Positions 4,345 through 35,041 of a DNA stretch of 64,000 nt are shown piece after piece. The stretch comes from a virus, in the IMG/VR virus record IMGVR_UViG_3300044632_002025. One strand, written 5' to 3'. The notes below the pieces were generated by a model. The model did not search any database. It was not told the DNA's origin and saw only the letters and a list, made by a program, of their open reading frames with translations. Within the stretch, counting starts at the first letter, position 1; every line of letters begins with the position of its first letter. The position numbers and the translations under genes are program-made.

Positions 4345-4362
4345 TTAGACAATAACGCCCAA
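4345..4362 (+). promoter_or_regulatory. start-associated motif TTAGACAATAACGCCCAA
   Basis: Identical 18-mer to 19943, 29651 and 33218(-). 40 nt upstream of ATG 4402. Confidence 0.55.
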
Positions 4363-5376: not shown

Positions 5377-5533
5377 CTTAACACCTACCAATATTTAGAC
5401 TTAGATTGAGCGGAGTAAAAAGGGGTTCGCCCATTTCCTATTATAGAGGCGAACTACGGCCTATTGAACAGTAGAAACCCTGTGTGGGATAAAACACAAA
5501 AGAATCTACTGAAAATAATAGGAAAATTAGAAA

Positions 5534-7490: not shown

Positions 7491-7501
7491 ACAACGCTCA
7501 A
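7491..7501 (+). promoter_or_regulatory. start-associated motif variant ACAACGCTCAA
   Basis: 31 nt upstream of ATG 7532. Confidence 0.4.
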
Positions 7502-10190: not shown

Positions 10191-10198
10191 TCGCCCAA
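10191..10198 (+). promoter_or_regulatory. start-associated motif core TCGCCCAA
   Basis: 36 nt upstream of the tape-measure ATG 10234. Confidence 0.35.
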
Positions 10199-10233: not shown

Positions 10234-13200
10234 ATGCCAGAACAGCAAGGATACAATGTATCGTCACTATTTGTTTCGATAGGATTAGATACAAGTCCAG
10301 CAGAAAGAACTTTAAACCAATTTGAGAACTTATTGCAAAGTTCTGTAAATCGGTTAATCTTCACATTTACAGAAGACGTATCGCAAAGATTCGCCAGAAG
10401 TTTTGAAGGTCTAGGTCGTGGCATTGGTAACTCTGTCCAAAGAAGTCTGAACGAGGCTATGGGGCAAACCAAGAGAATTGAGAAAGAAGCCACAGAATCC
10501 TTAGCAAATATAAATAAAGCGGCTCAAACAGGTTTAAGTGAAGTATCAAGTGCCACAACTGGGGCTTTAAGTGAGGTCAACAAAGCCTTAAAAGATTTAG
10601 AAGCCAATTCCAAAAAAACCTTAGAAAACACTCAAAAAGAAGTAAAACGACAATTAGACGGTATAAGAAATTTAGCGGCATCCTCCAATCTAGACCAAGA
10701 TAAGGTAATAGGGGCGATGGCCGGTAGTCTTTCTAGGCAACTAAAAGCGATGGACTTTTCGCAAATAGAGGGGAGTTTACAAGCTATTCAAAGAAAAGCT
10801 TTAGATTTAGGGTCTACACTGGAAAAACAGGTAGGAGACATAAGAAATAGCCTAGCCCAACCTGCGGAAGAATTAGAAAAGGCATTAAATAACTCGTTAA
10901 AAAAGACCCAAGAAGCAGTAGGAATAGCTGACAAAGCCTTAGAAGAATCTGGGGTAAAATTTGCTGAAAAAGTAGGTTCAGCCTACAAACAAGCATCGGA
11001 AACTTTTGCTAAAGAAGGAGTAGGTTCAGCAGAGAAAGCGATAAATAGTCTATCAAAAGGTGTAGAATCCGCAATTAAAGAATATGAGAGAGCGGTAGAA
11101 AGTACAGCCAACGATTTGTCTAAAAAAGCGCAACAGTTTCAAGTCTTGGGTACAACTGTGGCCATGGCTGAAGCCGAAAGACTTTATGCTTTAGCCAATA
11201 GTGTTCGTTTAACGTCAGTGAACACCATAGCATCAGTGAGAGAAAGTGCTACCCAAGCAACCCAAAGCATATCCAAAGAAATGGGTAAAGCGGGGAGTGA
11301 AGCGGGGTCTGCATTCGGAGGTGGATTTGGAGCGGCTTTAGGGGGGGTCGTTGGTGGCCCGGTGGGAAGTCTTCTAGGTGCGGCAATAGCAGAAGCCCTG
11401 GCCAACGGACTTCAGTTAGCTTTAAACTCCAGAATGGAGGTCATTAAAGCTACTCTCGGCGGTTATATGAACACGGTAGCCCGTGGGATGATGAACTTTG
11501 CCGAAGAAGAAAGGCGTATAAACATGGGTTTATATGTTACGGGGAAAAGGGAAGGCTTTGGACAAGATAGTGAGGAATTTAACACAAAATCTAAGGACGT
11601 ACAGAGGGCAGTTACCTTGACTGCATCTGACCTGTCTTATGGACGGGTAGAAATTGCGGAACTATTCAAACAATTGGTAAAAGCCGGGTTTAATTATAAT
11701 GAGATTATAGGTGGAACAACCCCCGAAGAAATGAGACGGGGGGCATTGTATCAAACTGCTGGTTTAGGGGAAGCAGTAGAGTTACCAGGAGACCAATTAG
11801 ATGAAACCAGCATCTTAGTAAAACAATTTAAAATGGCATTCCCTGAAAATAGTATAAAAACTATTGTTAGAGAAATCGCCGCATTGGGACTGTCCACTCC
11901 TGCCCAATTTGATAGATTTAAATATGCAACTCAGGATTCGCTATCTGCGGCGGCCGTAGCTGGAATCCCGATGAGAGATGTGATGCAAGGGTTTGCAACG
12001 ATGTTTAACTTAAGTACCCCTGAAGTAGCGGGTACAATGTTAAAAACCATCTACAACGGTATAAGTGGGGGTAATGTAAACCGCCAGATGTACGGGGTAG
12101 TGTCCAAGTATTATCAGGGAGAGGATGGGCAAGGAGATTTACTAACAGCATTAAGAAATCCTGGAGACTTTGCCGCAGAATTTGCTAGATTAGACACTGT
12201 GATGGATTCAATCCTGAAAAAGGGTGAGGCAGTGGGAATTGCGGGGATGGAGAATGTAACAGGAGACTATTACAAAAGTCTAGGGTTACAAGAACAAGCA
12301 GATATGAGGGCTAGAGGGGTATCTAATCTGTTCGGTGGTGGAGACACCTTCCAAATTGGTTATAGAAACTTAACTCTTGAAGGACGTGAAAAAGCAGAAG
12401 AACAAAAACGAGAGTTTGCCAACTTTAATAATGAGAAAGACGGGGAATTACTACCCGACTTCATTCGACTGCGCCAAAAGGGATTAAAGGGGGCAATGGA
12501 GTTAATCGAATCCACCAAAGAAAACGTGGAATCGTTTGCCGCTAAATTGGCTCCTGGTTTTACTCAAATGGTGCTATTTTTCAACAAAGTAGCCAACGAG
12601 TTAACTGCTGGTATGGAGAAGTTTTCCGGGCCACTGGAGAGAATATCTGAAAAATTAGGCGAAGTATTTGGCAATCTATCAGAGAATAAACTCATTGATA
12701 AATTTGTGGATGGAATTTCCAGTACAATGGGTAATGTTGGTAGAATCTTTGAGAACTGGTTAAACTCAGCAATAGAATTTGTATCTAAAGGGGAAAACGT
12801 AGATACAGTATTTTTAAATCTTAACAATCTGTTATCGGATTTTGCGGGGTTAATGCAAAACCTAGCAGTAGCATTTAAGTCATTTCTACCTTTGATAAAC
12901 GAAGCCACTGGTGCATTATCTAAAGCGGGGGTAGAGTCCGAAGTAAGACAAGTTTCAGAAGAACTAAAAATCAGGGGAGTAGGAGAGGTTAGTGAAAGAG
13001 TATTTAACTATGGGAGTCAAGTAGGCAATGTAGAGGGAATTAAAATTACAAACTCCGAGGCACTAGGGACAGTATCGGAGGAAGAAGCTAAACAAATAGC
13101 AAAATCCATTAAGGGTAAAAGCTCTACTGCCACACAAAGTTATATAAGAACTGGGAGAGAACGGTCTCATGCTGGAATGTTTGGGGCAGTAACAGCCCCA

Positions 13201-16200
13201 GAAAGTTTTGCGGATGTGGATGAATCTACCAGTGTTGGGTTAATCCAACAAGGAATGAAAAGGGTAGAAGCTAACGGTAGAACCTACTATATAACCGGAG
13301 GTACAGGGGAGGGTCAGAGTCAGTTTTACGAATTAATAGATGGTGATTTTAGAAAGGCCACAGGAACAATCGACTCAGACCCTAAAACCCGTGAAAATCT
13401 GATAGAAACTCTAATGCCTAGGGAGGGGAATAATCCCCCCCCAATGGATTTATCAACGGCTGGTATGGGGTCATTCCTAAATCCTAAAATACTGGCAGAA
13501 ATCGCTAAGGAAAATGGGAATCTTAAAAACCGTCAAGCCGCCACATTAGAAGCCCAACAATCAAGAGTTCGGGACTTATTTGGTAATAATGCAGTTTTTG
13601 ATGAGAAAACAGGGAAAGTAAGAGAACAGGATAGTGAGGGTAACAGAGCAGATTTATCTTCTAGTAGTTTCGGTACAGAGGCATTATCCAAAACCCCTGA
13701 ACGTCTGAATGCCTTAATCCGTACTGGGGCAGGTCTAGAGGGAAGTTCTGCGGAGCAAGCCCTAAGAGAAACGGCAAGCAGAAGCAAAATCACCAATCTA
13801 CAAACAATTACTGGTCTATCTTCTGGTAAAACCAAAGGTAAAGAGGGGGAAGCCTTCTTATTAAGTCAAGCAGATGTCTTAGAAACGGTAAGGAGAAATG
13901 AGAAAGAAGGGGCGGACATAGCCAAAACTGCTTCGGAGTTAACACAAGACACAACCAAAGAATTAGAGGAAGCCCTACGGAAAAAGGGACAATTAAAACC
14001 TGCGTGGGATAGAATTAAGAAACAGATTGAGTCTGGAGAAATTGTAGGGGACAGCACAACGTTCCTAGAACAATTTATCACAAAAGCCCGTGAAAAGGTA
14101 AGCGACAATAAAACCCCGTTTGCCGAAAGAAATGCAATGAATGAGAATTTAATTGCATTGACTAAAGATTTAAACACGGATAAACCAAAACCTTTAGAAA
14201 AACCTGGGGCAGTTAAAGAAGGTGTTCCTGCTGACCTAGAAAAGTACCGTCGTCTTATTGACGATATGAACCGGAGCAGAATTGAGCAAGAAAACCAGAT
14301 TCTCCAACTAAGGCAAAAATCTTTAGAATTGGAGCGTCAATCTTTTGTGTTGGCTACGGCATTTAAAGGACAAGTAAATGCTAATTTGGAGCAATTCTTT
14401 GGTATCTTAAGTCAGGCAGAAAATACCCTGTTAGGGAATCAGACAAAACTAAGACAAATAGACCAATTCTTTGTTGACCGTCGGAACAATCTTGCTAATC
14501 AGTTTAAAGATGTAAACCCGCAGGTAGGTGGGGGCATCCAGGACAACTATGAGGGTACGGGGCAACCAGTATTTGTACCTAAAGCATCCCCTGATAAAAA
14601 TGTTAATGCACTATCTAAAGACTTGATAAAAGGGCAATTAGATGCTATCAAAGAGAAACAGAATGAAAGGGCTGAGATTGCTAAACAGAATGAGCTAATT
14701 CAGCGTAATCTTACCCAACAAATAAGAAATGCTGTAGCCCAAACGTTCCAACAAGCCACAAACACAGCAACTGGGTTAGCCTCATCTTTCGGGGGTAACA
14801 GTGAGTTTATGGTAAAAACCACTCAACTCTTTGATGGGGTAAGAACTCAAGGGGTACAATTAGCTCAACAAATACAAGCCTTAAAAGTTATTCAACAGAC
14901 AAATCCTAGTGGTTTTGGGGCGCAGGATGCTAAAGCCCTCTCAGGATTAGAAGGTGTATTTAAGCAAATTCCCAGGATGCTGAAGGAAGCGTTAGGAGAC
15001 GCACTTGCTTCCCTACTCCGTCAGGTAAATACTTTCTTCCAAGACCTATCAGAACGGTCTAGACAAAGAAGTAATGAATTGATGGGTATGGTGATGCCTG
15101 GTGGAGCTTCTTCGGGTTTATTGACGATTGTGGGGGACTTACAAAATAGTCTGTTCAAAAATCAACAAGAGAGTTTAGAACTACAACAAGAATCTTCACA
15201 GATAAGAAGACAAGTAGAGCTAAACCGTTCACTGGGGGCTGTGTTCCCTGACCAATTCTTTGCCCAAAAAGTATCGATGGGTGAGGCATCTATAGGTGTG
15301 AATGATGCAAAAAGAGGGGGGTTAGAGTTAGAAGCTAAAAATCTCCTAGAGACTTCCAAAATTAAAGCCAATATAACCTACTTCAACAGCTTTATTGAGT
15401 TATTTCAAGGAGCTAGAGGTCTTAGCAGAGGATTCAGTAGTGTCTCAGATGCTGTAACAGAAGTAGAGCAAAGACGAGAAGCAATTACTAAATCTATCTT
15501 CGACTTAGAAACTCAAATACAGCTAATGGAATCTCAACTTGAGACCATGAATAGTGTATTTGGTTCTCTGAGTTTAGTTGACCGTGAGAGACTAGAAGAA
15601 GGTAAGAAATATTTAGAGCAACAAAAACAAGCCACAATAGCCCTTCAAAAAATCAATGATGCACTAAGAGGGGAATTAGGGAAATTGGCAATAGCTAAAG
15701 TCCAAGAGGATGCTAGGGGTAATGCTCAAAGTGCATTGATGGAATCTAATTCTGCCCGGTCACAAATTCTCGGAATGTCAGATTCCCGGTCTACTCGTAG
15801 GGAAGCCGCTTCTATAGATTTAGAAAATTCCCGTATTGATGCAATAAAAAGAGTAACAGAAGCTACTCTCAAAAGTGCTGAAGAAAGAGCTAATATAGTT
15901 GCAGAATTAGCCAACATGGACTCAAATGCGGCTAAGGGTATGTATAACACACCTGAAGCTCAAGCGGAAATAGCTAGAAAATATGTTGAGTACCAATCTC
16001 GACTCATAGCAATAGACAATGAAGTTGGGAATGCCCGTGTGATGGCGTACAACAACTTAAAAGTCCAAGTTGAAAAATCTGCCTTAGAGTTGGATGAAGG
16101 CTATCGTGCAAACGTTCAAATAGCCAATACTGTTGATGGGGCTTTCTCCAATCTTTATGATATTCTCACCGACTCCAGTAAATCTTTTGCTGATAGAATG

Positions 16201-18072
16201 AGAGATTTTTCCCAGAGTTTAATCAAAGACTTTGGACGGATAGGTTGGGAACAATTGAGGGATGTGATTGTATCCCCCTTCAAGGATATGCTAACTAAAA
16301 GAGACACATCTGGGATATTAAACCCAAGTATGCCTGATTTTAGTAGGGTGGGGGCTAATTTAAACTTCCAGTCCGCCGCAATGTCCAACCCTGACGACCC
16401 GAAATCGAAGGAAAAACTCAGAGAGCAAATTTTAGCTGTAGATGCCCAACAACAAACAGCATTAAAAGAGTTAAACGAGAGAATGCGTCGTCAAATAGTT
16501 TCCTCTGCCAACATAGATGATGCGGGCAAAGCGGCTTCTACGATGTATTCAACTTTGGCCAAGGAAATTGCTAACAACACTAAGGACGCTGAATTATCTA
16601 AATTAATCTCAATAGGTTCTGCGAATGGTCAAGAAGGTATGGCAACAAATATTGCCTTACAAACTTCCATTCAAGAAAACATCAAAAACACGCTGTTGCA
16701 AAGTCAGACTACACTGAAAGAGATTTTAGTTAAGTTAAGCTCTAATACTGTACAAAACCCAACAGCTAATCCTCAATATTCTTCAACCGCTAACACCCAG
16801 TATCCTAGTAACTTTGGTGCTGAGATTCTACCCCCGCCTCCTAACGTAAAACCTGGTACAAAGCCCCAAACTGGCTCCCAGTCTAATGTTTTACCTGCTC
16901 CCCCCAGTGTTGGGCAAACTCCGGTTAAACCCCAACCTAAACCTAAACCAGTTGTCAATGAACAAGCAGTAGATTACCAATTGAATAACAACCCTGCCAA
17001 CGCAGAGTTTAATCGTTTGTTCAAAGAGAGAAAGAGACAAGGATTGACAGGGGGAACCCTAGAGAGAACTGGGAAACCAGAAGTACCACAACCGCTTAAG
17101 GATGAGGACACCCGGAGGATTCTGGATGACCAGTTAAGAAGGGGGATGTTTAAAAATGAGAAGAATCGCACTCGTAGAAATCTACAGAATCAGTTAAGAA
17201 GTTCTACCCCTAATGAAACTCTTGTTTCAGGGTTAATGGGGGATATGCCGGTAGATTGGTTTGGGGCTTCAACCCCCACTTCTAACTTCCAATCCCTAAC
17301 TAATCTCCAAATGGGTACAGGATTAGACCGACTTATCCTTGACAATCTTCAAACGGGTTCAGGATTAAACCCTGGCAATTTCTTAATGGGTTTAGGGCTA
17401 CAACAAGGGCAAGGGCAAGGATTTGGTGCTACCCCAGCTTTCTCATTGGAAAATTTAGATATGCTCAGTGTCGCCTCCCAACAAGGGGGTGGAGGTTGGT
17501 TATCTAAATTTCTAGGGGGAATGGGGGGTATGAACTGGATGAGCATGGGTATGATGGCATTACCCTTTATCATGTCCCTATTTAATTCTGGGAAGCGTAA
17601 AAGATACAACTCCGGAGGGGTTGTCCCCGGTGCTGGTACTACCGATACTGTACCTGCCATGTTAACTCCTGGTGAGGGGATTTTAACCAACGCTGGTATG
17701 TCCAGAATTGGTGGTGAGAAAAATCTTTATGCCTTGAACTCTGGCAGTCTGAAAATGGGGGCGATTCAACCCCCCAAAAACTTAGGGATGCCCAATCTAC
17801 CTACCGCAGAAGCCAACAAGAGTAAGAGTGCAATACCCGTTCCAGTTAAAACGGAGGCTGAAAAAACGATAGCCCAATATATGGGTGGTAATGAGGAATA
17901 CAGCTTACCACCAATTGAACTATCGTACACCAGCACTACCATAGCTGGTCAAAATTATGTTACCGAACAAATGTTCAAGTCGGCCATTGAGCAATCAGTG
18001 GAACGGGCTAAAATGGAAGTTTTCGGTACATTAAAAAATTCCCCCAACACTAGGCGTAAATTGGGGCTTTGA
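10234..18072 (+). CDS. tail tape measure protein (2612 aa)
   Basis: Very long coiled-coil/Ala-Gln-rich ORF with a Gly-rich hydrophobic segment. C-terminal GGVVPGAGTTDTVPAMLTPGEGILT motif is typical of tape-measure C-termini. Tail-tip genes follow. Confidence 0.85.
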   Translation: MPEQQGYNVSSLFVSIGLDTSPAERTLNQFENLLQSSVNRLIFTFTEDVSQRFARSFEGLGRGIGNSVQRSLNEAMGQTKRIEKEATESLANINKAAQTGLSEVSSATTGALSEVNKALKDLEANSKKTLENTQKEVKRQLDGIRNLAASSNLDQDKVIGAMAGSLSRQLKAMDFSQIEGSLQAIQRKALDLGSTLEKQVGDIRNSLAQPAEELEKALNNSLKKTQEAVGIADKALEESGVKFAEKVGSAYKQASETFAKEGVGSAEKAINSLSKGVESAIKEYERAVESTANDLSKKAQQFQVLGTTVAMAEAERLYALANSVRLTSVNTIASVRESATQATQSISKEMGKAGSEAGSAFGGGFGAALGGVVGGPVGSLLGAAIAEALANGLQLALNSRMEVIKATLGGYMNTVARGMMNFAEEERRINMGLYVTGKREGFGQDSEEFNTKSKDVQRAVTLTASDLSYGRVEIAELFKQLVKAGFNYNEIIGGTTPEEMRRGALYQTAGLGEAVELPGDQLDETSILVKQFKMAFPENSIKTIVREIAALGLSTPAQFDRFKYATQDSLSAAAVAGIPMRDVMQGFATMFNLSTPEVAGTMLKTIYNGISGGNVNRQMYGVVSKYYQGEDGQGDLLTALRNPGDFAAEFARLDTVMDSILKKGEAVGIAGMENVTGDYYKSLGLQEQADMRARGVSNLFGGGDTFQIGYRNLTLEGREKAEEQKREFANFNNEKDGELLPDFIRLRQKGLKGAMELIESTKENVESFAAKLAPGFTQMVLFFNKVANELTAGMEKFSGPLERISEKLGEVFGNLSENKLIDKFVDGISSTMGNVGRIFENWLNSAIEFVSKGENVDTVFLNLNNLLSDFAGLMQNLAVAFKSFLPLINEATGALSKAGVESEVRQVSEELKIRGVGEVSERVFNYGSQVGNVEGIKITNSEALGTVSEEEAKQIAKSIKGKSSTATQSYIRTGRERSHAGMFGAVTAPESFADVDESTSVGLIQQGMKRVEANGRTYYITGGTGEGQSQFYELIDGDFRKATGTIDSDPKTRENLIETLMPREGNNPPPMDLSTAGMGSFLNPKILAEIAKENGNLKNRQAATLEAQQSRVRDLFGNNAVFDEKTGKVREQDSEGNRADLSSSSFGTEALSKTPERLNALIRTGAGLEGSSAEQALRETASRSKITNLQTITGLSSGKTKGKEGEAFLLSQADVLETVRRNEKEGADIAKTASELTQDTTKELEEALRKKGQLKPAWDRIKKQIESGEIVGDSTTFLEQFITKAREKVSDNKTPFAERNAMNENLIALTKDLNTDKPKPLEKPGAVKEGVPADLEKYRRLIDDMNRSRIEQENQILQLRQKSLELERQSFVLATAFKGQVNANLEQFFGILSQAENTLLGNQTKLRQIDQFFVDRRNNLANQFKDVNPQVGGGIQDNYEGTGQPVFVPKASPDKNVNALSKDLIKGQLDAIKEKQNERAEIAKQNELIQRNLTQQIRNAVAQTFQQATNTATGLASSFGGNSEFMVKTTQLFDGVRTQGVQLAQQIQALKVIQQTNPSGFGAQDAKALSGLEGVFKQIPRMLKEALGDALASLLRQVNTFFQDLSERSRQRSNELMGMVMPGGASSGLLTIVGDLQNSLFKNQQESLELQQESSQIRRQVELNRSLGAVFPDQFFAQKVSMGEASIGVNDAKRGGLELEAKNLLETSKIKANITYFNSFIELFQGARGLSRGFSSVSDAVTEVEQRREAITKSIFDLETQIQLMESQLETMNSVFGSLSLVDRERLEEGKKYLEQQKQATIALQKINDALRGELGKLAIAKVQEDARGNAQSALMESNSARSQILGMSDSRSTRREAASIDLENSRIDAIKRVTEATLKSAEERANIVAELANMDSNAAKGMYNTPEAQAEIARKYVEYQSRLIAIDNEVGNARVMAYNNLKVQVEKSALELDEGYRANVQIANTVDGAFSNLYDILTDSSKSFADRMRDFSQSLIKDFGRIGWEQLRDVIVSPFKDMLTKRDTSGILNPSMPDFSRVGANLNFQSAAMSNPDDPKSKEKLREQILAVDAQQQTALKELNERMRRQIVSSANIDDAGKAASTMYSTLAKEIANNTKDAELSKLISIGSANGQEGMATNIALQTSIQENIKNTLLQSQTTLKEILVKLSSNTVQNPTANPQYSSTANTQYPSNFGAEILPPPPNVKPGTKPQTGSQSNVLPAPPSVGQTPVKPQPKPKPVVNEQAVDYQLNNNPANAEFNRLFKERKRQGLTGGTLERTGKPEVPQPLKDEDTRRILDDQLRRGMFKNEKNRTRRNLQNQLRSSTPNETLVSGLMGDMPVDWFGASTPTSNFQSLTNLQMGTGLDRLILDNLQTGSGLNPGNFLMGLGLQQGQGQGFGATPAFSLENLDMLSVASQQGGGGWLSKFLGGMGGMNWMSMGMMALPFIMSLFNSGKRKRYNSGGVVPGAGTTDTVPAMLTPGEGILTNAGMSRIGGEKNLYALNSGSLKMGAIQPPKNLGMPNLPTAEANKSKSAIPVPVKTEAEKTIAQYMGGNEEYSLPPIELSYTSTTIAGQNYVTEQMFKSAIEQSVERAKMEVFGTLKNSPNTRRKLGL

Positions 18073-18136: not shown

Positions 18137-18146
18137 TATCGCTCAA
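18137..18146 (+). promoter_or_regulatory. start-associated motif variant TATCGCTCAA
   Basis: ~28 nt upstream of ATG 18174. Confidence 0.35.
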
Positions 18147-18173: not shown

Positions 18174-19946
18174 ATGCCTTTAGAATTTCCGTCAAATCTA
18201 GCCCCCAACTTCTTTCATGTGGATAAACTACCCGATTACGGGCTAAAACTACATGAAAACGAATTAGGACGGGAAATTAGACGTTTTACAGAGACTACAG
18301 GGAATGAAACAGAGTTAAGAGTTCTTTATACGGGGATGAGGGCTACGGAGGTAAATACTCTTTTATCCTTTTTCAGGGATACAAAGGGGACATTTGAAGC
18401 TTTTACCCTGCCAACAAGTTTTTACTTAAGTCCTGATGAAATCACTAACTCTTTGGCAGGATTAGACGACACAGAAACTTGGCGTTTCCTAAGACAACCA
18501 ATAATAAAAACAATTATAAGTGATATTTACCAGACCGAAATAAACCTTATTTCGCTGAAAGAACCACCATCCCAAAGTTCAGGAAATGTAGTGGGGTTTG
18601 TGGAATCAGTGGTTTTAAGTTTAACACCTTCAAAAATAACACTAGCCCCCCTTCTTGTTAGTAGGGTTTTTGATTCAATCCAGTTGGATTTTAGCGAGGG
18701 GGGTTCAACAGTTATTCCTAGAACTACCGCCCTACTCACTAATTTAAACTTTAGTCTAGCTAGTCTGACTACTTTGGCTAATGCGGGGGCGGGGGCATCA
18801 TCTGGCAGTCTAAACTTTAGTCTACCCATAGTGATTCCCAGAATACCGGTGCTTATGGGTTTTGAATCTATAACACTAGAGTTAACACAAGGTAGTACAG
18901 GTTACTATGAATTAGCAGGATGGGATGAAATGCAAAGCATAATAGTTTCTGGGACTTTTACATCGACATTAAGAACAATCCATCTGGTGAATACAGGTAG
19001 TGGTGTGGCATCCACAACTTTACCCTCAAATGCCCCTGATAATTCAATAATCATCTACTCGGATTATGCCGGTACAAGTAGCCAAAGCCCCACGGGGTTT
19101 GGGTTAAATAGTTTTACCCTGAACGCTCCTGCGGGTCAAACAATTCAGGGGCAAAATAGTAGGGTTTTTAACGTTGAAAACACTTCTATTCAGTTGATAA
19201 AGAAAGGAACCCGTTGGAATATAGTAGGGACAGAATTGGCTACTGGAAATTCTAGTGGTGGTAATAATTTGCCAGTGGAGTCCCTTCAAACTCAGAACGG
19301 AGGTAACTTAGATTTAAATACTAATCAAGCTGGGAAAATTCTTGCAAATAGTGTCAACACCAGTAACTTTAATTTAACTTTAACTCAAAATACTTTATTT
19401 ATTAACGGTTGGTACTGCTATGTAAGAAATGATAGTAATTGTATCATCACTGTAAATCCCTCATCGGGTGTAACAATAAACCATAGTAACGGTTTAACAC
19501 TAGGTCAAAATGAGTTAGGATTACTAATATGTAATGGAAGTAACAATTGGTATTTCCAAAAGCTATCTAACTTTATAAAATCGATTGGGAACGGGCTTAA
19601 CTTATCTGGAGCGGGGGCATTAGCAACGACACCCCTTACAGAATCCATGGATGGGCAAATTGACTCCCCATCAAACAAAACATACACTTTAATAGCCAGT
19701 GCTAGATATGGTTTCACTATTGAAAACTTAACAGTCTTTACTACCAGTGGAACTTGTACTGTTGCCGTCCAAATTAATGGGGTAAATGTAGGGGCATTAA
19801 GTGGTATTAACGTGACTAGCTCTAGTCAAACTGTTAATAGTACGACGGCCAAGACAGTAACCACGGGACAACGAGTAACCTTCGTGGTATCTAGTAACAG
19901 TAGTGCTAGTGAATTGGTTTTCTCTCTAGGAACCCTGAGAACTTAG
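18174..19946 (+). CDS. tail fibre/tip protein with conserved ~130-aa N-terminal domain
   Basis: N-terminus is paralogous to 20415, 25244 and 25675 (LPDYGLK...W RF..PI). C-terminus is Ser/Thr/Asn-rich. Confidence 0.55.
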   Translation: MPLEFPSNLAPNFFHVDKLPDYGLKLHENELGREIRRFTETTGNETELRVLYTGMRATEVNTLLSFFRDTKGTFEAFTLPTSFYLSPDEITNSLAGLDDTETWRFLRQPIIKTIISDIYQTEINLISLKEPPSQSSGNVVGFVESVVLSLTPSKITLAPLLVSRVFDSIQLDFSEGGSTVIPRTTALLTNLNFSLASLTTLANAGAGASSGSLNFSLPIVIPRIPVLMGFESITLELTQGSTGYYELAGWDEMQSIIVSGTFTSTLRTIHLVNTGSGVASTTLPSNAPDNSIIIYSDYAGTSSQSPTGFGLNSFTLNAPAGQTIQGQNSRVFNVENTSIQLIKKGTRWNIVGTELATGNSSGGNNLPVESLQTQNGGNLDLNTNQAGKILANSVNTSNFNLTLTQNTLFINGWYCYVRNDSNCIITVNPSSGVTINHSNGLTLGQNELGLLICNGSNNWYFQKLSNFIKSIGNGLNLSGAGALATTPLTESMDGQIDSPSNKTYTLIASARYGFTIENLTVFTTSGTCTVAVQINGVNVGALSGINVTSSSQTVNSTTAKTVTTGQRVTFVVSSNSSASELVFSLGTLRT

Positions 19947-19960
19947 ACAATAACGCCCAA
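19943..19960 (+). promoter_or_regulatory. start-associated motif TTAGACAATAACGCCCAA
   Basis: 30 nt upstream of ATG 19990. Overlaps the TAG stop of the previous gene. Confidence 0.55.
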
Positions 19961-20807: not shown

Positions 20808-20820
20808 CGATAACGCCCAG
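20806..20820 (+). promoter_or_regulatory. start-associated motif variant AACGATAACGCCCAG
   Basis: 17-29 nt upstream of start 20837/20849. Confidence 0.4.
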
Positions 20821-25247: not shown

Positions 25248-25678
25248 GCAATCTTTCTTTTCCTGCTATAACTCCTGATTTTATGCGAGAGATTGAATTA
25301 CCTCCTTATGGTATCCATATAGTGACATTCCCTGATGGGGGGGAAGTTCGACAAGTCCTATCAGAGCAAAGCACAAAGTCCAAAGTCAAACTAGAGTTTA
25401 TTAACCGTAATGCTGTTGAAGTAGGAAATGTGTTAAACTTTTATAAGAATACCAGAGGTGTTTTTGGTAGTTTTACACTACCCCTATCTATTTGGCGACA
25501 CCCTCTAGTATTGACAAATGCCTATTCCAATCTCCTGAAAAATATTGTCTGGCGTTTTGACCGTCCAATTAGTATAAAAACCATTAGACAAGATGTATAC
25601 TCTTTTGATACCTACCTAATATCCGTATCGCCTGTAACACCGCCTAACCCCAATAGTTTCCCTGACCAAATTCTATGA
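25244..25678 (+). CDS. minor tail protein, shared N-terminal domain paralogue
   Basis: ATGA overlap. LPPYGIHI...VWRFDRPISIKT aligns with 20415. Confidence 0.5.
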   Translation: MSNLSFPAITPDFMREIELPPYGIHIVTFPDGGEVRQVLSEQSTKSKVKLEFINRNAVEVGNVLNFYKNTRGVFGSFTLPLSIWRHPLVLTNAYSNLLKNIVWRFDRPISIKTIRQDVYSFDTYLISVSPVTPPNPNSFPDQIL

Positions 25679-26985
25679 GTTTCCCTAACTTTCACCCTAC
25701 AAGAATTGAGGGCTTTACTCTCCCTGATTTCGGACTTCTAACCATTGAAGACCAAGCAGGGGAAGAGCGTAGAGCTATGCAATACACTGGTGGTAGGGAT
25801 GCTAAGTTGGACGTTTTTTTTGAAGGGCTTAATGAGTCTCAAATTCTTGAACTATTAGATTTCTATAAAAATATTTATAGCTCTGGGAGGGGGTTCGGTT
25901 TCCCCTCTAACTTTTTTGTCGGGCAAGAAATTTACTATGAGGCTTTGAAAAAATCTCTAGGTAAATTTTTACTTTATTTTACAAGCCCCCCCACTGTAAA
26001 AACTCTATACAGTGGTATCTACAGCATAAGAACACAACTAAAGGCCAGTAATGCCTTCATTTCTGCCCCCTCCAAAATATATGTCACGTTACAAACTCAA
26101 ACTTCTGTTAGTGCTATAGCCTCCACAACTTTTGTTGTTTGGAGTCAAGTGTCGGGTTCCCCTGTAACTTTCTCTGAACCTAACAGCTTAAACACTCTTG
26201 TGACTTCTCAAGGTGGTGTTTTTAACACTGTCAACGGACGGATTTTCTTAAAAATAGCATTGGTTGATAACCTTGATGTCTTCAGTCTTGTGGAGATAGT
26301 ACCTTCCCCAACCAGTTTCGATGTTTTAGGTGGTCTTAGCTTGTACCCCTCTGTCCCTGAACACCCCTCTAGCTTAAAGGTTTCCCCCCCTTTAATCTTT
26401 TCCCCCGCAGACTCCGAGGAAGCTTACTTCAAACGCAAAATAAATATTGACTCTGTTAGTTTTAGATGGTCTTTACCCGCTCAACCAGCTTTCTTAACCC
26501 ACTTTAATATTGAGGTTTATAACAAGCCTAATTGGGAATCTGTAGCTACTACCGAATCTAACTCTTATACTCTCCCCCCTAAAACTACTTTTCGTATAGT
26601 TTCTAGTTACAATATTGGCGGGCGTATCTTTTCCGTCCCCTCTGATATTTTCTATGTAGACCCCTTGATTCATCTTGATAGCTATGGTTATGGTTCAGAT
26701 ACAGTTAGCGAAATAAAAGTTATCCCTTCTTTCCTAGAGAGCCGAGTTTTAGATTTATTTAATACTCAAAAGTTTCCAGAGAGTTTTTGGGATACCACTA
26801 TAGGCTTTGTAGGCTCAAACCCTAATGAAAACCCTTTGCCTCTTTCCAACAGTTTCATCTTTGCTTATTCTCTTTCCAGTACCAACGACTCCCCCACTCA
26901 AAGTTCGTGGCACGCCCAAGTTTCTGTTATAGGCGGAATTAAATCTGTAACTGACTTAAATCTAGGTGGGGTAGTAATTGGCTAA
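25675..26985 (+). CDS. tail fibre protein with shared N-terminal domain
   Basis: ATGA overlap. The N-terminal 125 aa are paralogous to 18174, 20415 and 25244. Confidence 0.5.
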   Translation: MSFPNFHPTRIEGFTLPDFGLLTIEDQAGEERRAMQYTGGRDAKLDVFFEGLNESQILELLDFYKNIYSSGRGFGFPSNFFVGQEIYYEALKKSLGKFLLYFTSPPTVKTLYSGIYSIRTQLKASNAFISAPSKIYVTLQTQTSVSAIASTTFVVWSQVSGSPVTFSEPNSLNTLVTSQGGVFNTVNGRIFLKIALVDNLDVFSLVEIVPSPTSFDVLGGLSLYPSVPEHPSSLKVSPPLIFSPADSEEAYFKRKINIDSVSFRWSLPAQPAFLTHFNIEVYNKPNWESVATTESNSYTLPPKTTFRIVSSYNIGGRIFSVPSDIFYVDPLIHLDSYGYGSDTVSEIKVIPSFLESRVLDLFNTQKFPESFWDTTIGFVGSNPNENPLPLSNSFIFAYSLSSTNDSPTQSSWHAQVSVIGGIKSVTDLNLGGVVIG

Positions 26986-29654
26986 TGTTTAAAGCTATTG
27001 GTGAAGTAAGACTCGTTATTACAGACACTCAAACGGGTCAACAAAAAGAAATTATAAAGAATAATACCTTCACTGAACGAGGGTATCAGGCGGCCATGAA
27101 CTTGAATGGGTCTGTTTCAGGTCTAAAACAATCCCCATTTTCTAACCCCCAGAATATGGTAATTTCTACTTCCAGTGCTACCCCTAATCGGTATACTATT
27201 TCTGTTCCAGATATTATTGATGAGTGTCAAGACCCTTCTGGTGCTTCCGGGACAACCTGGGTAGAAGCTACAGAAGATACACCGATGTACGGTGAATTAA
27301 GGGGTAGATTAACCTTTACAGGGGCAAATCGTACTTTTCAAACTGTCGCTATAGTAGATAAGGGTTCGGGTGCGGCGGGTGTTGGTTTTACGACTGCCAA
27401 TGCCTACGCTTACGTTAGATTTGAGTCCCCAGTCACTCAAGCCTCCTTTGAAACCATCGACATTTTTTATCGGGTCTACTTTATTAACAGCCCTGGGTTT
27501 GGTCTACCACTAGGGGGAGACTTTGTAAGACATCTCGGACGGCGTTTATTCGGTTTTGAGTCTATTGCCGAATTGATTGGAAGTAGCTCAGGCTCAGAGG
27601 AAAAACCTGGTCAGTATCCTAGTCTTACTAGCGTCCCTAATCCTGATAGTTATAACTTTTTTGCCGTAAGAGATACACTAGAAACCAACGTCTCAGCACA
27701 ACCTATTAATAACGGTAGTTCTGGTTTGGCCACTTGGAGATATAATGAAAGCACTTCCCCTAGCCTTAGTTTTACCTTTGGTGGAACTTCCATAGGTCTA
27801 GATGCTTTCACTGGACGGGTTCTCAATTCTTTAGCTTTCGGGGTTATTCCTAGTAATAATAATCGGTGTATATCTGCTTTCCGCTTTGCTGACCCTAATC
27901 GAAGCCCTATTCAAACCTCTTGGGGTAAAAGAAATGGCGCACCTTCAGCTTTTTACGATGCTTCCTGGAGTGCCAACGGGACTGGTAGGGTTATCCCTTC
28001 TGGTTCTTGGACGGGTTTTTACCCAGATATGTACCGTGTTCGCATTGTGGATTCTGGTAATGTGGGTTCAGCAACTTATAAGTTAGAACGTCAAAGATTT
28101 ACTCACTACAACGGAAATTCTTGGGGACAAATTACTGACACCCCGCCCCATCTCTCACGGGGTAATACTGCTATCCCCTTTCCAGATTCACACGGACATC
28201 AAGATTTTCTTAATTACAAGGCTTTTTCAGAACGTAAGCTAATACGTTGGGATGCTACAGGTGTAGTCCTAATTGATATTTTCAATGGGGAATATAAGGT
28301 TTTTGATGCTGATAATGACCTGACAGTTTCCAACGCTAATTTGCCAGTTACAAATATCAAACAGGTAGAAGTTGTTAATGGTCTCATCTATGTTGCTTGC
28401 TCTAACACGGGACTTTGGAGAATTAACCCTGCTGGTGGTACAAATTCTATAACTTTACTATTGAATGAATCCGTCCACGGAGTTACCAGTATTTATTACC
28501 AAACTGGTTTAATTATTGTTGCTGTCACATCTAACGGATTTAGATGTTCCGATAATTGGTCTACTCTGTTCACCCCTTCTTCTACTTGGATTACTGATTT
28601 AGGTTTCTTTAGAGCTAAAGTAATTGTAGGTTGTAAGTCGGCTAATCGTCCTAATGGTGAATTGGCTCTCTACCTTACTAATGGTTCCGACCGTAGGATT
28701 GTTTGGTGGTCACGGACTATTGCTAATGGTAACGCTATTGACGCATTTTCTTCAGGGGGTTTATTTGATTTAGAAAATACTATTCAATGCTCTACTTTTG
28801 GTGATTTTTGGCTTGCATCTTCCGCTAATAACAATACCAGGACTATGACGTTTGGTTCTACCAATAATCCTGTACTAGGTGGAGTTAATATTCATTACAT
28901 GGACAATAATATCCCTGTTTTAGGGTTTTTTGATGAAAAAAATTCATATTATTTTTCTGCCCATTACAGTAATGCTTATGATGTTTTAATAAACGGTTCG
29001 GTTACGAGAGTTGAGGCTGTCAGTCCTTCCTACCCAAGCAATTCACCCCGTCCCCCTGGTACTCTTGTTTATCTGGGTAGAAATTTAGTATTTTCTTTTG
29101 GTAGTATTTATACTTGCTCGTATGGGTGGGAAGAATGGGGCTGGGACGGCTCTACCTGGGTTGAGGGTCATTCAGGCTCTAAACTTACCCATAGCGGCTC
29201 TCAAGCCATTTTAGATGGTCTTTCTGTTCGATTTGAGAATGGTTCGGCTGGTACTGCTTTTACCACCACTGATTTCTACACAGTTCCCGTTTGTTACGGG
29301 GTTTTAGGGGATAACGCCCGCTATGTGGACAGTTTCATCACAATTACTGCCTCTAATGTAACCTATCAGTCCAACATAGGAAGTTTAACTGTACCATCTT
29401 CCCCCCCATATAGTCTCCCTTTACCAGCCTCTACAAATTCAAATTTTGCTGGTTTAATCGGTTCTGATGTAAATTCCATTTCCGTTTCTCTTAATGGTAC
29501 ACCCGTTCCTAATTCTAACTTACTTTTTAATGGGGCTACCCCTCCTGAAGGCGGTTTAATCTCCTTCAACAACACCACTGGGACTGCCTTTTTCCATCCT
29601 TCCGATGCTGGAAAAACTTTCTCTGGTTATTACTCGTATTTGACCTCTGGTTAG
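26985..29654 (+). CDS. large tail fibre/receptor-binding protein (889 aa)
   Basis: Last large gene of the coupled tail block. Gly/Ser/Thr/Asn-rich. Confidence 0.45.
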   Translation: MFKAIGEVRLVITDTQTGQQKEIIKNNTFTERGYQAAMNLNGSVSGLKQSPFSNPQNMVISTSSATPNRYTISVPDIIDECQDPSGASGTTWVEATEDTPMYGELRGRLTFTGANRTFQTVAIVDKGSGAAGVGFTTANAYAYVRFESPVTQASFETIDIFYRVYFINSPGFGLPLGGDFVRHLGRRLFGFESIAELIGSSSGSEEKPGQYPSLTSVPNPDSYNFFAVRDTLETNVSAQPINNGSSGLATWRYNESTSPSLSFTFGGTSIGLDAFTGRVLNSLAFGVIPSNNNRCISAFRFADPNRSPIQTSWGKRNGAPSAFYDASWSANGTGRVIPSGSWTGFYPDMYRVRIVDSGNVGSATYKLERQRFTHYNGNSWGQITDTPPHLSRGNTAIPFPDSHGHQDFLNYKAFSERKLIRWDATGVVLIDIFNGEYKVFDADNDLTVSNANLPVTNIKQVEVVNGLIYVACSNTGLWRINPAGGTNSITLLLNESVHGVTSIYYQTGLIIVAVTSNGFRCSDNWSTLFTPSSTWITDLGFFRAKVIVGCKSANRPNGELALYLTNGSDRRIVWWSRTIANGNAIDAFSSGGLFDLENTIQCSTFGDFWLASSANNNTRTMTFGSTNNPVLGGVNIHYMDNNIPVLGFFDEKNSYYFSAHYSNAYDVLINGSVTRVEAVSPSYPSNSPRPPGTLVYLGRNLVFSFGSIYTCSYGWEEWGWDGSTWVEGHSGSKLTHSGSQAILDGLSVRFENGSAGTAFTTTDFYTVPVCYGVLGDNARYVDSFITITASNVTYQSNIGSLTVPSSPPYSLPLPASTNSNFAGLIGSDVNSISVSLNGTPVPNSNLLFNGATPPEGGLISFNNTTGTAFFHPSDAGKTFSGYYSYLTSG

Positions 29655-29668
29655 ACAATAACGCCCAA
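29651..29668 (+). promoter_or_regulatory. start-associated motif TTAGACAATAACGCCCAA
   Basis: 24 nt upstream of ATG 29692. Confidence 0.55.
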
Positions 29669-30825: not shown

Positions 30826-30835
30826 TAACGCCCAA
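30826..30835 (+). promoter_or_regulatory. start-associated motif core TAACGCCCAA
   Basis: 38 nt upstream of ATG 30873. Confidence 0.45.
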
Positions 30836-30872: not shown

Positions 30873-31514
30873 ATGGCAAAACGTGCCGGCCCTGCGCTAA
30901 TCGAAATCGGTGAAGGTGCTTCCAAGATTACTTTGACTAATGATGACCAGCTTAATGATGCGGTTATCATGATTGAACGGGATGAGTTCCAACTTAAATC
31001 TCAAATTTCCTCCAAACCAGTTGGATACATTAAGGTGGGTATCGAAACAAAGCTAGAAATCTCGATTGCGGAGATTGATGCCGCTCAAATCGCTTTACTA
31101 TTCGGCACTCCCCTTGTTACTGCTACTGACACGGTTAACTCTGTTAACTACACTATGACCAAAACGGAAGTTACTGACCAAGCTGGTCAGCTTATCACCG
31201 GTCAAAAAGTAGTTATCAAACCCTACCCTATTGTAGCTGACCCTGGCACTACTGCTCCTACTACCACTACCTATAACGGTAAAACTTATGCGACGATTCA
31301 GTTAGCTGAAGACGCTTTTGATGCTGATGTTGCTCTTTTTAAAGCATGGGAAAATACAGTAATTACTTTCCCCAACGGTGCGCTCACATCTATTAATGGG
31401 TCTCGTTTATCGATGGGTTTACAGACGCAACAAGAATTAAAAATTACAATCACCGGACTCCCTGACCCATTAACAGGGGTGAGAATGATTTACGGTGACG
31501 CAAGTATCGTATAA
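30873..31514 (+). CDS. possible major tail (tube) protein
   Basis: 213 aa with its own motif and a strong terminator. No motif proof. Confidence 0.35.
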   Translation: MAKRAGPALIEIGEGASKITLTNDDQLNDAVIMIERDEFQLKSQISSKPVGYIKVGIETKLEISIAEIDAAQIALLFGTPLVTATDTVNSVNYTMTKTEVTDQAGQLITGQKVVIKPYPIVADPGTTAPTTTTYNGKTYATIQLAEDAFDADVALFKAWENTVITFPNGALTSINGSRLSMGLQTQQELKITITGLPDPLTGVRMIYGDASIV

Positions 31515-31545
31515 ATACTTAGCCGCTTAGAGCTAATTGCAACCA

Positions 31546-32694
31546 CTAAACCCCCTGCTCTGCGGGGGGTTTTTGTTTTGGCTGTTCCCCCACTGGAATA
31601 GTCAAAGCATCTTCCACACTCCAGCCTTTTTTAAGCCTGTGTCTTAATGTGTGCGGTTTCATACCTAACTCTCTCGCCCAGCAAGAAACAGTCTGAATCT
31701 TCCCATTAAATTCTACCATGTTTAGGTGGTCATTTACGGGGGTTTCAAAGGCTTTCTCTACTGACCAACCGTACTTGTTTAATCTAACACTGAGGGTTGA
31801 TGATTGCAAACCTAATTCTTTAGCCCATTCCCCTAAACTTTGACTTCTACCCTGATATTCAATCTGGGGGATATAATCACCAGACGGGGTAGTTAATGCT
31901 TTATCCACGCTCCAACCCAAGTCTATTATGCGTGAACGAACACAACCTTCATCGAGTCCCATTCGTTCTGCCCAATGTCTTAGCGGCAAAATCTCCCCCC
32001 TGAAAGTTAGTAGACGATTGTTTCTTTTGTTAGCGGCTTGTTCTTCTAGCGGAATCCATTTGCAATTTTCAGGACAATAATCACCGTTAACATCAATTCT
32101 TTCAATAGAGTATCCTTCAGGACATTCACCCATATCTTCTAGGAAGTTTTCAAAAGAATTTAACCAACGGTCACACACTTTAATCCCTCTTTTCACATAA
32201 CCCCCATTAGGGTCTTGATTAGAATTAGTGCATCTGGCTTTCATTGAACGCCATTTAATATATGTCGGGGACTCCCCAATTTTAGGACTATGCCCATGCT
32301 TGGTTTTAGTTTCTATAACTCTTTCTAAGTTGTAGCAACCGCAGGAAGTAGTTTGACCCTTTCTCAAGTTACTACCTCTAACTGTAGTTTTATTTCCACA
32401 ATCACAAACGCAATCCCACATAACCTGTCTGAAGTTATCTCTTTCCGGGTTCTCGCCCGTGACTGTTAATCTACCAAATTTCTGCCCTAACAAATCCTTT
32501 TTGCTAATTACTTCTTGTAGTTTGCACCCGCAGGAATTAGTGTGTCCACCTGTCAAACAGCTACTTACTGTAGTTTTGGTTCCGCCACAGTCACAAACAC
32601 AGTCCCATTGAATTTGACTATTTTTTCTAACTGGGTTTTCTCCCACTACCGTCAGTTTTCCAAATCTTTGTCCCAGTAAATCTCTCTTAGGCAT
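31546..32694 (-). CDS. HNH-type (homing-like) endonuclease with duplicated Cys-rich N-terminal units and three C-terminal DNA-binding repeats
   Basis: GYSIERIDVNGDYCPENCKWIPLEEQAANKRNN. Two LLGQ.FG.LTV.GENP...WDCVCDCG units. Three ...WA.E.G......R....GWS.E.A...P repeats. Confidence 0.55.
   Translation of the reverse strand: MPKRDLLGQRFGKLTVVGENPVRKNSQIQWDCVCDCGGTKTTVSSCLTGGHTNSCGCKLQEVISKKDLLGQKFGRLTVTGENPERDNFRQVMWDCVCDCGNKTTVRGSNLRKGQTTSCGCYNLERVIETKTKHGHSPKIGESPTYIKWRSMKARCTNSNQDPNGGYVKRGIKVCDRWLNSFENFLEDMGECPEGYSIERIDVNGDYCPENCKWIPLEEQAANKRNNRLLTFRGEILPLRHWAERMGLDEGCVRSRIIDLGWSVDKALTTPSGDYIPQIEYQGRSQSLGEWAKELGLQSSTLSVRLNKYGWSVEKAFETPVNDHLNMVEFNGKIQTVSCWARELGMKPHTLRHRLKKGWSVEDALTIPVGEQPKQKPPAEQGV
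31551..31575 (+). terminator. rho-independent terminator CCCCC-tgctctgc-GGGGGG-TTTTT
   Basis: Overlaps the 3' end of the convergent HNH gene. Confidence 0.65.
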
Positions 32695-32744
32695 AAAAGC
32701 TCCTTTAACTCTATTTCTACATCATAAACCCTTACCCGTCTTTT

Positions 32745-32759
32745 GTCAATAACGCTCAA
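32745..32759 (+). promoter_or_regulatory. start-associated motif variant GTCAATAACGCTCAA
   Basis: 35 nt upstream of a 23-codon ORF. Confidence 0.35.
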
Positions 32760-32793: not shown

Positions 32794-32865
32794 ATGAAAA
32801 AAAGTTCTGGCTGTAAGAAACCCAAAATGCCTAAGCCCAAACCCCTAAAACCTAAAAAGGCTTAG
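32794..32865 (+). CDS. possible 23-aa Lys/Pro-rich peptide (MKKSSGCKKPKMPKPKPLKPKKA)
   Basis: Motif upstream and a bidirectional terminator downstream. Too short to be sure. Confidence 0.2.
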   Translation: MKKSSGCKKPKMPKPKPLKPKKA

Positions 32866-33200: not shown

Positions 33201-33218
33201 TTGGGCGTTATTGTCTAA
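33201..33218 (-). promoter_or_regulatory. start-associated motif TTAGACAATAACGCCCAA (minus strand)
   Basis: 32 nt upstream of ATG 33169. Confidence 0.55.
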
Positions 33219-33246
33219 GTACATATTTGTTTAAAAACGCTCATAT

Positions 33247-34969: not shown

Positions 34970-35041
34970 GGAGTTACTACCCTTACATATTAACGAATGT
35001 TAATGTTTTAGTAACCGTGTTAATGGGCTAGACCCCAGATA

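Follow-up and report, generated by a model that had tools for sequence, protein, structure and literature searches.

What reads the short sequence that recurs in front of the structural, lysis and packaging genes of a virus known from the IMG/VR record IMGVR_UViG_3300044632_002025, and does it mark the places where late transcription begins? The question arises in a 64,000-nucleotide (nt) stretch of this virus (hereafter the window, i.e., the whole stretch of DNA analyzed), in which the most conspicuous form of the repeat is the 18-mer TTAGACAATAACGCCCAA. An earlier note on this DNA, here the original prediction, had taken it for a late promoter or regulator site, a view that is now supported by its conservation in a related phage, its tie to late genes there and the steps in transcript level that accompany it. 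The reading favored here, with a probability of roughly 0.62, is that a Mic1-like Microcystis siphophage uses the motif as its late-gene promoter, a single -10-type element that is probably read by the phage's own sigma factor.

The window comes from a siphophage of 40.8% G+C, whose genes (simple calls made in this analysis) include those for a scaffold, a capsid protein, a tape measure of 2612 amino acids (aa), tail proteins, an endolysin, a primase, ThyX, MazG and PhoH, with the portal and large terminase on the strand opposite to the scaffold, capsid and tail genes. The closest isolate is Microcystis phage Mic1, with a portal protein 60.8% identical and a syntenic gene order; it was found by protein-level search only, a megablast of 20 kb of the window against the phage collection returning no match, and its intergenic DNA (Mic1 has 35% G+C) is not alignable with that of the window. 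Several IMG/VR contigs, on the other hand, are 93-98% identical to the window; loci compared with it are denoted below by L numbers where they have to be told apart.

The four exact copies of the 18-mer lie just where they had been reported, at 4345-4362, 19943-19960 and 29651-29668 on the plus strand and 33201-33218 on the minus strand, and a copy with three mismatches is found at 32742-32759 on the plus strand, with 0.05 matches at up to three mismatches expected from shuffled sequence. The claimed enrichment upstream of start codons is likewise borne out: there are 15 matches to WMCGCYCAA versus 2.26 expected by chance, and of the 27 matches to CGCYCAA on both strands 19 are non-coding, while 16 precede a called start codon by 10-50 nt in sense orientation (binomial p of 2e-21 versus all positions and 2e-13 versus non-coding positions only). 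None lies antisense in such upstream windows, in keeping with the orientation that had been described. A prior-free count of 7-mers in the windows 10-57 nt upstream of genes places CGCCCAA at the top (before 12 genes), followed by its overlapping neighbors, and at 19 sites the end of the core stands 23-43 nt from the likely ATG when the nearest plausible start codons are chosen. The list of 13 shorter variants in the original prediction needs some amendment: 12 of them carry CGCYCAA as placed, whereas the copy at 20806 reads ATAACGCCCAG, with a core at 20814-20820 that ends in G, and the (A/T)(A/C) supposed to precede the core does not apply at 10192 and 18140, where a T rather than A/C stands directly before it. 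Five sites had been missed (10-16, 5428-5434 and 26913-26919 on the plus strand; 5406-5412 and 37215-37221 on the minus strand).

These data support a 7-nt core, CGC(C/T)CA(A/T), perhaps with weak flanks, as the functional unit rather than the 18-mer, because the 11-nt upstream half of the latter is not conserved in Mic1. The weak flank preferences in the window comprise T.AGAC at -12 to -6, A/T at -2/-1 and aCTAA past the core. The sites are as follows, together with their Mic1 counterparts and the steps in Mic1 transcript level (log2 transcripts per million, TPM):

10-16, plus strand: core CGCCCAA, 43 nt before the ATG at 60 of a 94-aa open reading frame (ORF).
1151-1157, plus strand: core CGCCCAA (ttTTAGACtataCGCCCAA), 37 nt before the ATG at 1195.
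4345-4362, plus strand: exact 18-mer with its core at 4356-4362, 39 nt before the scaffold gene (4402-5019), in a divergent region shared with the putative regulator gene at 3505-4287 on the minus strand; in Mic1, CGCTCAA stands 39 nt before the ortholog gp42.
5406-5412, minus strand: core CGCTCAA, 29 nt before the ATG at 5376 (ORF 5059-5376/5391); in L018 the insertion site of a TnpB element.
5428-5434, plus strand: variant core CGCCCAT, 99 nt ahead of the gene for the major capsid protein (5534-6580); L006 has CGCCCAA here, next to a TnpB element; Mic1 gp40 has CGCCCAA at 97 nt.
7495-7501, plus strand: core CGCTCAA, 30 nt before the ATG at 7532; Mic1 gp38 (late, L1) has CGCTCAA at 30 nt.
10192-10198, plus strand: core CGCCCAA, 35 nt before the tape-measure gene (10234-18072) and divergent from the sigma gene; at 35-46 nt the core reads CGCCCAC in Mic1 (gp35) and CGCCCAT in L026-L028.
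18140-18146, plus strand: core CGCTCAA, 27 nt before the minor tail gene (18174-19946).
19943-19960, plus strand: exact 18-mer with its core at 19954-19960, overlapping the TAG stop of 18174-19946, 29 nt before the ATG at 19990; the Mic1 ortholog gp33, with a step of +4 over gp34, is preceded at 41 nt by CGCTCAA.
20814-20820, plus strand: the variant core CGCCCAG noted above, 16 nt before a GTG at 20837 or 28 nt before an ATG at 20849.
26913-26919, plus strand: core CGCCCAA, within the coding sequence 25675-26985 and 65 nt ahead of the tail-fiber gene (26985-29654; 889 aa), a probable internal promoter; the Mic1 counterpart is CGCTCAA 65 nt before gp25, inside the upstream gene, with a step of +3.1.
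29651-29668, plus strand: exact 18-mer with its core at 29662-29668, overlapping the TAG stop of 26985-29654, 23 nt before the ATG at 29692; Mic1 gp23 has CGCTCAA at 30 nt and a step of +4.2.
30829-30835, plus strand: core CGCCCAA, 37 nt before the tail-tube gene (30873-31514); Mic1 gp20 has CGCTCAT at 43 nt and a step of +6.4.
32742-32759, plus strand: TTTGTCAATAACGCTCAA, 34 nt before a conserved 23-aa ORF (32794-32865).
33201-33218, minus strand: chimeric 18-mer, made up of a resident CGCCCAA (33201-33207) and the 11 nt TTAGACAATAA (33208-33218) from the left-end tip of a TnpB element, 31 nt before the ATG at 33169.
37215-37221, minus strand: variant core CGCTCAT, located between the terminase and portal genes and 33 nt from the portal ATG at 37181; Mic1 gp2 has CGCCCAA at 26 nt.
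39030-39036, minus strand: core CGCCCAA, 31 nt before the large terminase ATG at 38998 (16 nt before a TTG at 39013), in a divergent intergenic region; Mic1 gp1 has CGCCCAT at 42 nt.
41762-41768, minus strand: core CGCCCAA, preceded by a terminator hairpin, 34 nt before the ATG at 41727.
45121-45127, minus strand: core CGCCCAA (ccAGACAAataCGCCCAA), 33 nt before the ATG at 45087, heading a cluster that ends in phoH; Mic1 gp94 (late, L1) has CGCTCAA at 38 nt.
48276-48282, plus strand: core CGCCCAA, 41 nt before the endolysin gene (48324-49166), with a hairpin and T-run beginning at the core; the layout is the same in Mic1 gp9, a late gene between middle genes.
53248-53254, minus strand: core CGCCCAA, 31 nt before the ATG at 53216, back to back with the next site.
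53305-53311, plus strand: core CGCCCAA, 35 nt before the in-frame ATG at 53347 of a 1087/1099-aa protein.

The phylogenetic spread of the core follows the same genes. In Mic1, CGC(C/T)CA(A/T/C) stands in sense orientation before the orthologues of the motif-bearing genes of the window, namely the terminase gp1, portal gp2, endolysin gp9, gp16, tail tube gp20, gp23, gp25, gp33, tape measure gp35, gp38, capsid gp40, scaffold gp42, gp94 and PhoH gp97. In four more Mic1-like contigs the cores persist, with C/T and A/T wobble, between flanks that differ, and among the relatives 93-98% identical to the window the core is invariant while the bases directly upstream vary; three more distant relatives (with terminases 53-59% identical) also have a few such core sites.

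The late timing of the downstream genes comes from RNA sequencing of Mic1 infection, in which all 98 genes were assigned to early, middle or late clusters (PMC11237433), and it extends to the phage of the window by orthology only. A core 15-110 nt upstream is present at 18 of the 43 late genes of Mic1 versus one of the 55 early or middle ones (Fisher p = 4e-7), and with the interval narrowed to 20-60 nt the counts become 14 of 43 versus none of 55. At the junctions of co-directional late genes, the 6-h change in log2 TPM has a median of +3.97 with a core (n=9) and of -1.3 without one (n=17; Mann-Whitney p = 3e-4)—a transcript step-up of about 16-fold at motif-bearing junctions, in TPM values that are noisy for short genes. 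The motif also accounts for single late genes within middle or early clusters: the muramidase gene gp9, flanked by the middle genes gp8 and gp10, has a core 36 nt before its start, and gp67, a late gene within an early cluster, has one about 150 nt upstream, which lies 33 nt before an unannotated 22-aa ORF. This ORF has a relative in the window, and both encode conserved Lys/Pro-rich peptides of 22-23 aa (MKKSSGCKKPKMPKPKPLKPKKA at 32794-32865 on the plus strand of the window; MKKKSCGKKIKKVTPKPVKPNK at 65582-65650 in Mic1). In both phages the ORF starts 33-34 nt after a motif copy, and in the window it is followed by a hairpin.

A sequence that lies so regularly before start codons could act in the RNA rather than in the DNA, i.e., in the 5' leader of the mRNA, through processing, stabilization or control of translation in the manner of a start-associated sequence. 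Its strict sense orientation and the narrow range of 23-43 nt to the start codons would suit such a role, the step-ups of transcripts could reflect cleavage and differential stability, and the core can pair into a hairpin at four sites. However, eight of the window sites are situated between divergent genes, where one would not expect a sense transcript to arrive from upstream, and the back-to-back cores at 53254 (minus) and 53305 (plus), 50 nt apart, allow any other promoter no more than about 44 nt. Several sites come directly after terminators: the hairpin before 41768 has paralogues in two other cassettes, in which a TTGACG-N17-TATAAT promoter comes next, and in L002, which has no HNH gene at this place, the T-run of a terminator leads directly into the copy at 32742. 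Moreover, the hairpin is found at only four of the approximately 22 sites, the motif does not overlap the ribosome-binding site, and Mic1 gp9 is late though the gene directly upstream is a very highly expressed middle gene, so that the motif does not simply relay upstream transcription. A search of the window with Rfam at gathering thresholds matched a tRNA as its sole hit and no known RNA family at the motif sites. An element of the mRNA leader is considered improbable.

At the four hairpin sites (48276 and 33207 in the window; 11292 and 2876 in Mic1) the structures resemble terminators with a T-run, their 5' arm overlapping or abutting the core, with dG of -11 to -20 kcal/mol and z of -3 to -8. 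Taken together, four observations favor a start signal at the level of the DNA, namely the divergent sites, the sites that follow terminators, the overlap of core and hairpin and the short spacings to the ATG.

What kind of start signal this might be is suggested by its surroundings. There is no conserved -35-like column upstream of the core in either the window or the Mic1 sites, and a purine stands 7 nt past the core (core start +13) at 13 of 18 window sites and 17 of 18 Mic1 sites (30 of 36 together), the position expected if the core is a -10 element at -13 to -7. From the missing -35 and the preferred purine a single-element promoter of the -10 type is therefore proposed; the core cannot itself be a -35 element, because its spacing to the ATG can be as short as 23-27 nt. 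A promoter of the SigA/sigma-70 type is not indicated, since no conserved -35 or TATAAT stands at a fixed spacing around the core, and neither is one of the extracytoplasmic function (ECF) type, with an 'AAC' -35 16-17 bp upstream of a CGT-type -10, as the positions -17 to -30 from the core carry at most 0.3 bit in both phages. Two further arrangements, TTAGAC as a -35 with a -10 downstream and a -35 at 16-17 nt upstream of the core, were rejected as unconserved or impossibly spaced. In the proposed mechanism the core would act as a -10 element without a separate -35, and transcription would start about 7 nt downstream of it at the preferred purine, giving 5' leaders of about 17-37 nt. At the hairpin sites such a start would fall within the 5' arm, and late transcripts would bypass the hairpin, while read-through from upstream would terminate there—an arrangement that would fit the difference between gp8 (middle and very highly expressed) and gp9 (late).

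The most obvious candidate for a reader is encoded by the phage itself:

9517-10044, minus strand: gene for a sigma-70-family protein of 175 aa with regions 2 and 4; no motif upstream of the gene.

Both sigma regions were recovered, and the original prediction of a phage sigma factor at this place thus stands. In a profile search of solved structures the best match is SigH (3mzy, E = 7e-23), with the ECF factor SigE also found, and the protein scores below the cut-off of the NCBIfam model for ECF sigma factors, TIGR02937 (34.5 vs 42.9 bits). It is 41% identical to Mic1 gp36, which belongs to the middle cluster M2 (PMC11237433), i.e., the Mic1 homologue is expressed before the late genes. Beyond this the protein is nearly private: an exhaustive HMMER search of 1.8 billion cluster representatives gave three relatives below 1e-10, all of the Mic1 group, a shared-word search gave near-identical proteins only, and a search for related loci starting from a remote sigma match (P0125) found none; the loci around the distant terminases (L012, L013 and L015) end short of the sigma region. 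A private sigma factor of the middle phase and a private motif before late genes make the simplest pairing, by which the phage sigma, made in the middle phase from host-type promoters, would direct the host RNA polymerase to the core.

Promoters of this host type were indeed found before motif-less genes, as TTGACA-N17-TATACT, much as the original prediction had it for the other class of genes. They are near-identical to one another in the form CCCCTTGACA-N17-(TG)TTATACT, stand before the tRNA and motif-less genes, and make up a family of CCCCTTGACA-N17-TGTTATACT or TATAAT at 39811, 40700, 46181, 46435, 46585, 51294 and 56982 on the plus strand and at 43030 and 42214 on the minus strand. Several have similar flanks, and the two on the minus strand have the -35 inside a terminator hairpin. 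The tRNA, a tRNA-Met (CAT) at 40754-40827 on the plus strand, has a perfect promoter (TTGACA-N18-TATAAT, at 40700) on one side and a terminator (at 40850) on the other. This family is probably the early/middle promoter class.

Late association and conservation would also fit any other late-specific DNA-binding reader, e.g., a late activator that binds the core and aids RNA polymerase with the host sigma factor, or an alternative sigma factor of the host, in which case the phage sigma would not be the reader. Two putative regulators encoded in the window (3505-4287 and 42241-42972, both on the minus strand) could be such activators, and around half of the window sites have a hexamer starting with TA (TATATT, TAAGTT, TAAAAT) 2-3 nt past the core, possibly weak -10 elements. 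This hexamer is, however, missing at the best copies (4356, 29662, 33207) and unconserved in Mic1, and a -10 right past the core would have no -35 at a workable distance, TTAGAC being only 14-15 nt away. As a dedicated sigma factor expressed just before the late genes is also the simpler candidate, an activator or a host sigma is considered unlikely.

Several observations weigh against a promoter read by the phage sigma. The protein has an intact region 4, which normally reads the -35, yet no -35 is conserved. The expression evidence comes from Mic1 and not from the phage of the window, and the TPM step-ups could stem from RNA processing or differential stability. Among the late genes of Mic1, several are without a core, because they are situated inside operons, and some have only degenerate ones (e.g., CACTCAA, CGCTCGC), while upstream of the most highly expressed, capsid and cement, the core stands at a distance of about 75-100 nt instead of about 35 nt; conversely, the middle gene gp7 has a core 86 nt upstream. 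Finally, the core is also seen inside the spacers of three host-type promoters, all of them strong, its distance from the -10 hexamer varying from one to the next: two TTGACA/TATAAT promoters of the window (core matches at 2855-2861 and 46192-46198 on the plus strand) and one in Mic1 (54438, minus strand). The two in the window are probably a different thing from the late-gene sites; those in host-type spacers may be chance or the mark of dual-phase promoters.

The fourth 18-mer introduces a different player, a transposon inserted beside the core:

33208-35024, plus strand: TnpB-only element of the IS200/IS605 family, 1.8 kb, with tnpB at 33539-34969, lying 3' of TTGGGCG, the complement of the core.

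The identity of the element rests on the OrfB_IS605 (Pfam PF01385) and zinc-ribbon TNB (PF07282) domains of its protein, with PF12323 besides and an NCBIfam guided_TnpB score of 120.7 bits versus a cut-off of 100. It encodes tnpB only, with no TnpA within, and has a TTGACA-N17-TATGCT promoter of its own; in Mic1 the TnpB gene gp49 belongs to the earliest-expressed class (PMC11237433). L002 is without window positions 33208-35024 and has the empty site ...TTGGGCG|ATGGGGCTAGACC..., which in the orientation of the motif reads cccCAT|CGCCCAA, and the last 11 nt of the left end of the element are TTAGACAATAA in that same orientation; the 18-mer at 33201-33218 is therefore a junction. Thus, although it is an exact match, it is not an independent resident site, and, judging from these sequences, three of the 18-mers are strong resident copies and the fourth was regenerated by a TnpB transposon that inserted directly upstream of a pre-existing core.

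The element is polymorphic in the population, with three independent insertions, in each of which the left end lies directly 3' of TTG(G/A)GCG without target duplication. Besides that of the window, L018 has the same element 3' of TTGAGCG (window 5406-5412), giving ...TTAGACAATAA|CGCTCAA, and L006/L017 have a variant with a different 86-nt left end, which faces the other way and abuts the CGCCCAA that precedes the capsid gene. The target-adjacent motif TTG(G/A)GCG rests on these three events, and its true length is accordingly uncertain. As transposon DNA has taken the place of the upstream sequence at three late promoters of naturally occurring genomes, including that of the essential capsid gene, no part of the DNA upstream of the core seems indispensable. 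How the tip came to equal the upstream half of the promoter might be explained by capture of a promoter flank by the element or by intragenomic conversion, both of which are possible. A scan of representative genomes with TnpB found only full-length relatives about 30-38% identical, in other cyanobacteria, and no close copy of the element was found in the representative cyanobacterial genomes.

Since one of the four 18-mers is a transposon-target junction and three insertions abut the core, it might be asked whether the 18-mers are nothing but TnpB footprints or target sites, i.e., debris of mobile DNA with no regulatory role. The other three, however, share only 11 nt with the element, and in L018 the site orthologous to 4345 reads TTAGTTTAGAACGCCCAA / TTAGTTTAGAA, with the same length as in the window and substitutions but no 11-nt indel; this makes it unlikely that the resident copies are footprints. 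The core is moreover kept before Mic1 late genes where no element lies, and debris would leave the fixed distance to start codons unexplained. Such an origin is already largely refuted and hardly credible. More tentatively, and with the late promoter retained as the preferred reading, the element may be specialized on this phage lineage, using the core complement TTGRGCG as its target-adjacent motif and carrying the 11-nt half at its tip so that insertions would rebuild a full promoter, by which means it could spread over about 20 sites at little cost. The same tentative scheme has late promoters nested in the 5' arms of terminators, which would stop middle read-through while late transcripts escape.

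Known phage systems provide parallels of different closeness. Among the features expected of a late promoter with a phage sigma, one seen here is a consensus that stands before many genes, in sense and far above chance. The closest analogue is phiEco32, in which gp36, a distant sigma-70 homologue, serves middle and late promoters with a single consensus centered at -11.5, while early genes use the host sigma-70 (PMC12276001). Both have a middle-phase phage sigma with a sigma2-like N-terminal and a sigma4-like C-terminal domain and one short consensus. They differ in that consensus, which is AATGTA there versus CGCYCAA here—G+C-rich in an A+T-rich genome—as well as in the sigma factors, which are unrelated beyond the family level, and in the cyanobacterial host; no homologue of the co-factor gp79 was identified here, and dependence on sigma was shown in phiEco32, whereas for the phage of the window we infer it.

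The late promoters of T4 (TATAAATA), served by gp55, gp33 and the gp45 clamp, likewise have a single element in the -10 region without a -35, before many late genes and including sites inside gene arrays. However, gp55 is without region 4 and needs gp33 and the sliding clamp, whereas the sigma of the window has region 4, and the sequences are unrelated. In the Bacillus phage SPO1, the phage sigmas gp28 and gp33/34 replace the host sigma on the core polymerase and drive temporal classes, a likeness in principle, but the promoters are bipartite, with a -35 and a -10, where a single conserved element is found here. By analogy, the present system would work like these phage sigma/late-promoter pairs, with the putative promoter-targeting TnpB as its less ordinary part.

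The original prediction had compared the motif with the start-associated sequences of some mycobacteriophages. Those of Cluster K mycobacteriophages are 13 bp long, lie a few bases from the start codon and include the ribosome-binding site. They share with the present motif that a short conserved sense repeat precedes a subset of start codons. The resemblance is superficial: here the core stands 23-43 nt (up to 99) from the start, does not include the ribosome-binding site, is separated from the start by unconserved sequence and is tied to a temporal class.

As to the transposon, a parallel can be drawn with insertion sequences (IS) that have promoter halves facing outward at their ends and so form hybrid promoters, and with TnpB elements of the IS200/IS605 family that have a fixed target-adjacent motif, given the left end placed against a fixed TTGRGCG, the absence of target duplication and a tip that supplies the upstream half of a promoter. 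It differs from these in being aimed at the core of a late promoter that belongs to the phage itself, in carrying a half identical over 11 nt to three resident promoters and in lacking TnpA; the regenerated 18-mer would be a putative promoter.

The motif and its link to the sigma of the Mic1 group are not described in the Mic1 genome paper (PMC7156551) or the transcriptome paper (PMC11237433), nor do they appear in the titles and abstracts of the further literature searched. The Mic1 group of bloom-related Microcystis phages thereby gains a late-promoter consensus and a candidate sigma-promoter pair, which makes the temporal program directly testable, and an orthogonal G+C-rich promoter/sigma pair could serve the engineering of cyanobacteria or cyanophages. 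The transposon insertions amount to a natural experiment on the replaceability of the DNA upstream of the core, and the element to a possible case of an RNA-guided-nuclease transposon tuned to a viral promoter.

An HNH endonuclease gene at 31546-32694 on the minus strand (window 31545-32745) is missing in L002, which has a terminator hairpin and about 25 bp instead; it looks like a free-standing homing endonuclease that was inserted between the tail-tube operon and the motif copy at 32742. The large terminase gene of the window (37238-39013, minus strand) is without an intein, whereas five near-identical contigs (L007-L011) have an insertion of 855-873 nt at 38066/38067, between the G and T of ...IIG|TPKGAG...; the terminases of relatives carry Pfam intein domains, and that of Mic1 is reported with two inteins. 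A core match at 38058-38064 on the minus strand, beside this insertion point, is regarded as a coincidence, as it encodes T-P-K next to a glycine-rich stretch.

As to simpler repeats, the non-coding DNA of the window is strongly enriched in runs of C or G (ACCCCCC/GGGGGGT), and a 20-nt tandem repeat at 2557-2628 has several staggered matches in L006, spread over about 250 nt, which hints at a longer array in this relative. An ATCAGTT repeat has been reported in Mic1 and in Microcystis NIES-843 (PMC7156551), and the same unit occurs 4.6 times at 58520-58551 of the window. Close by, an ORF at 57381-58340 on the plus strand contains a signature of the type YRLPTEAEWE, which we take to be that of formylglycine-generating-enzyme/sulfatase-modifying-factor domains; closely similar DNA is found in Mic1 at 50956, within gp45 ('serine/threonine kinase', 50768-51343).

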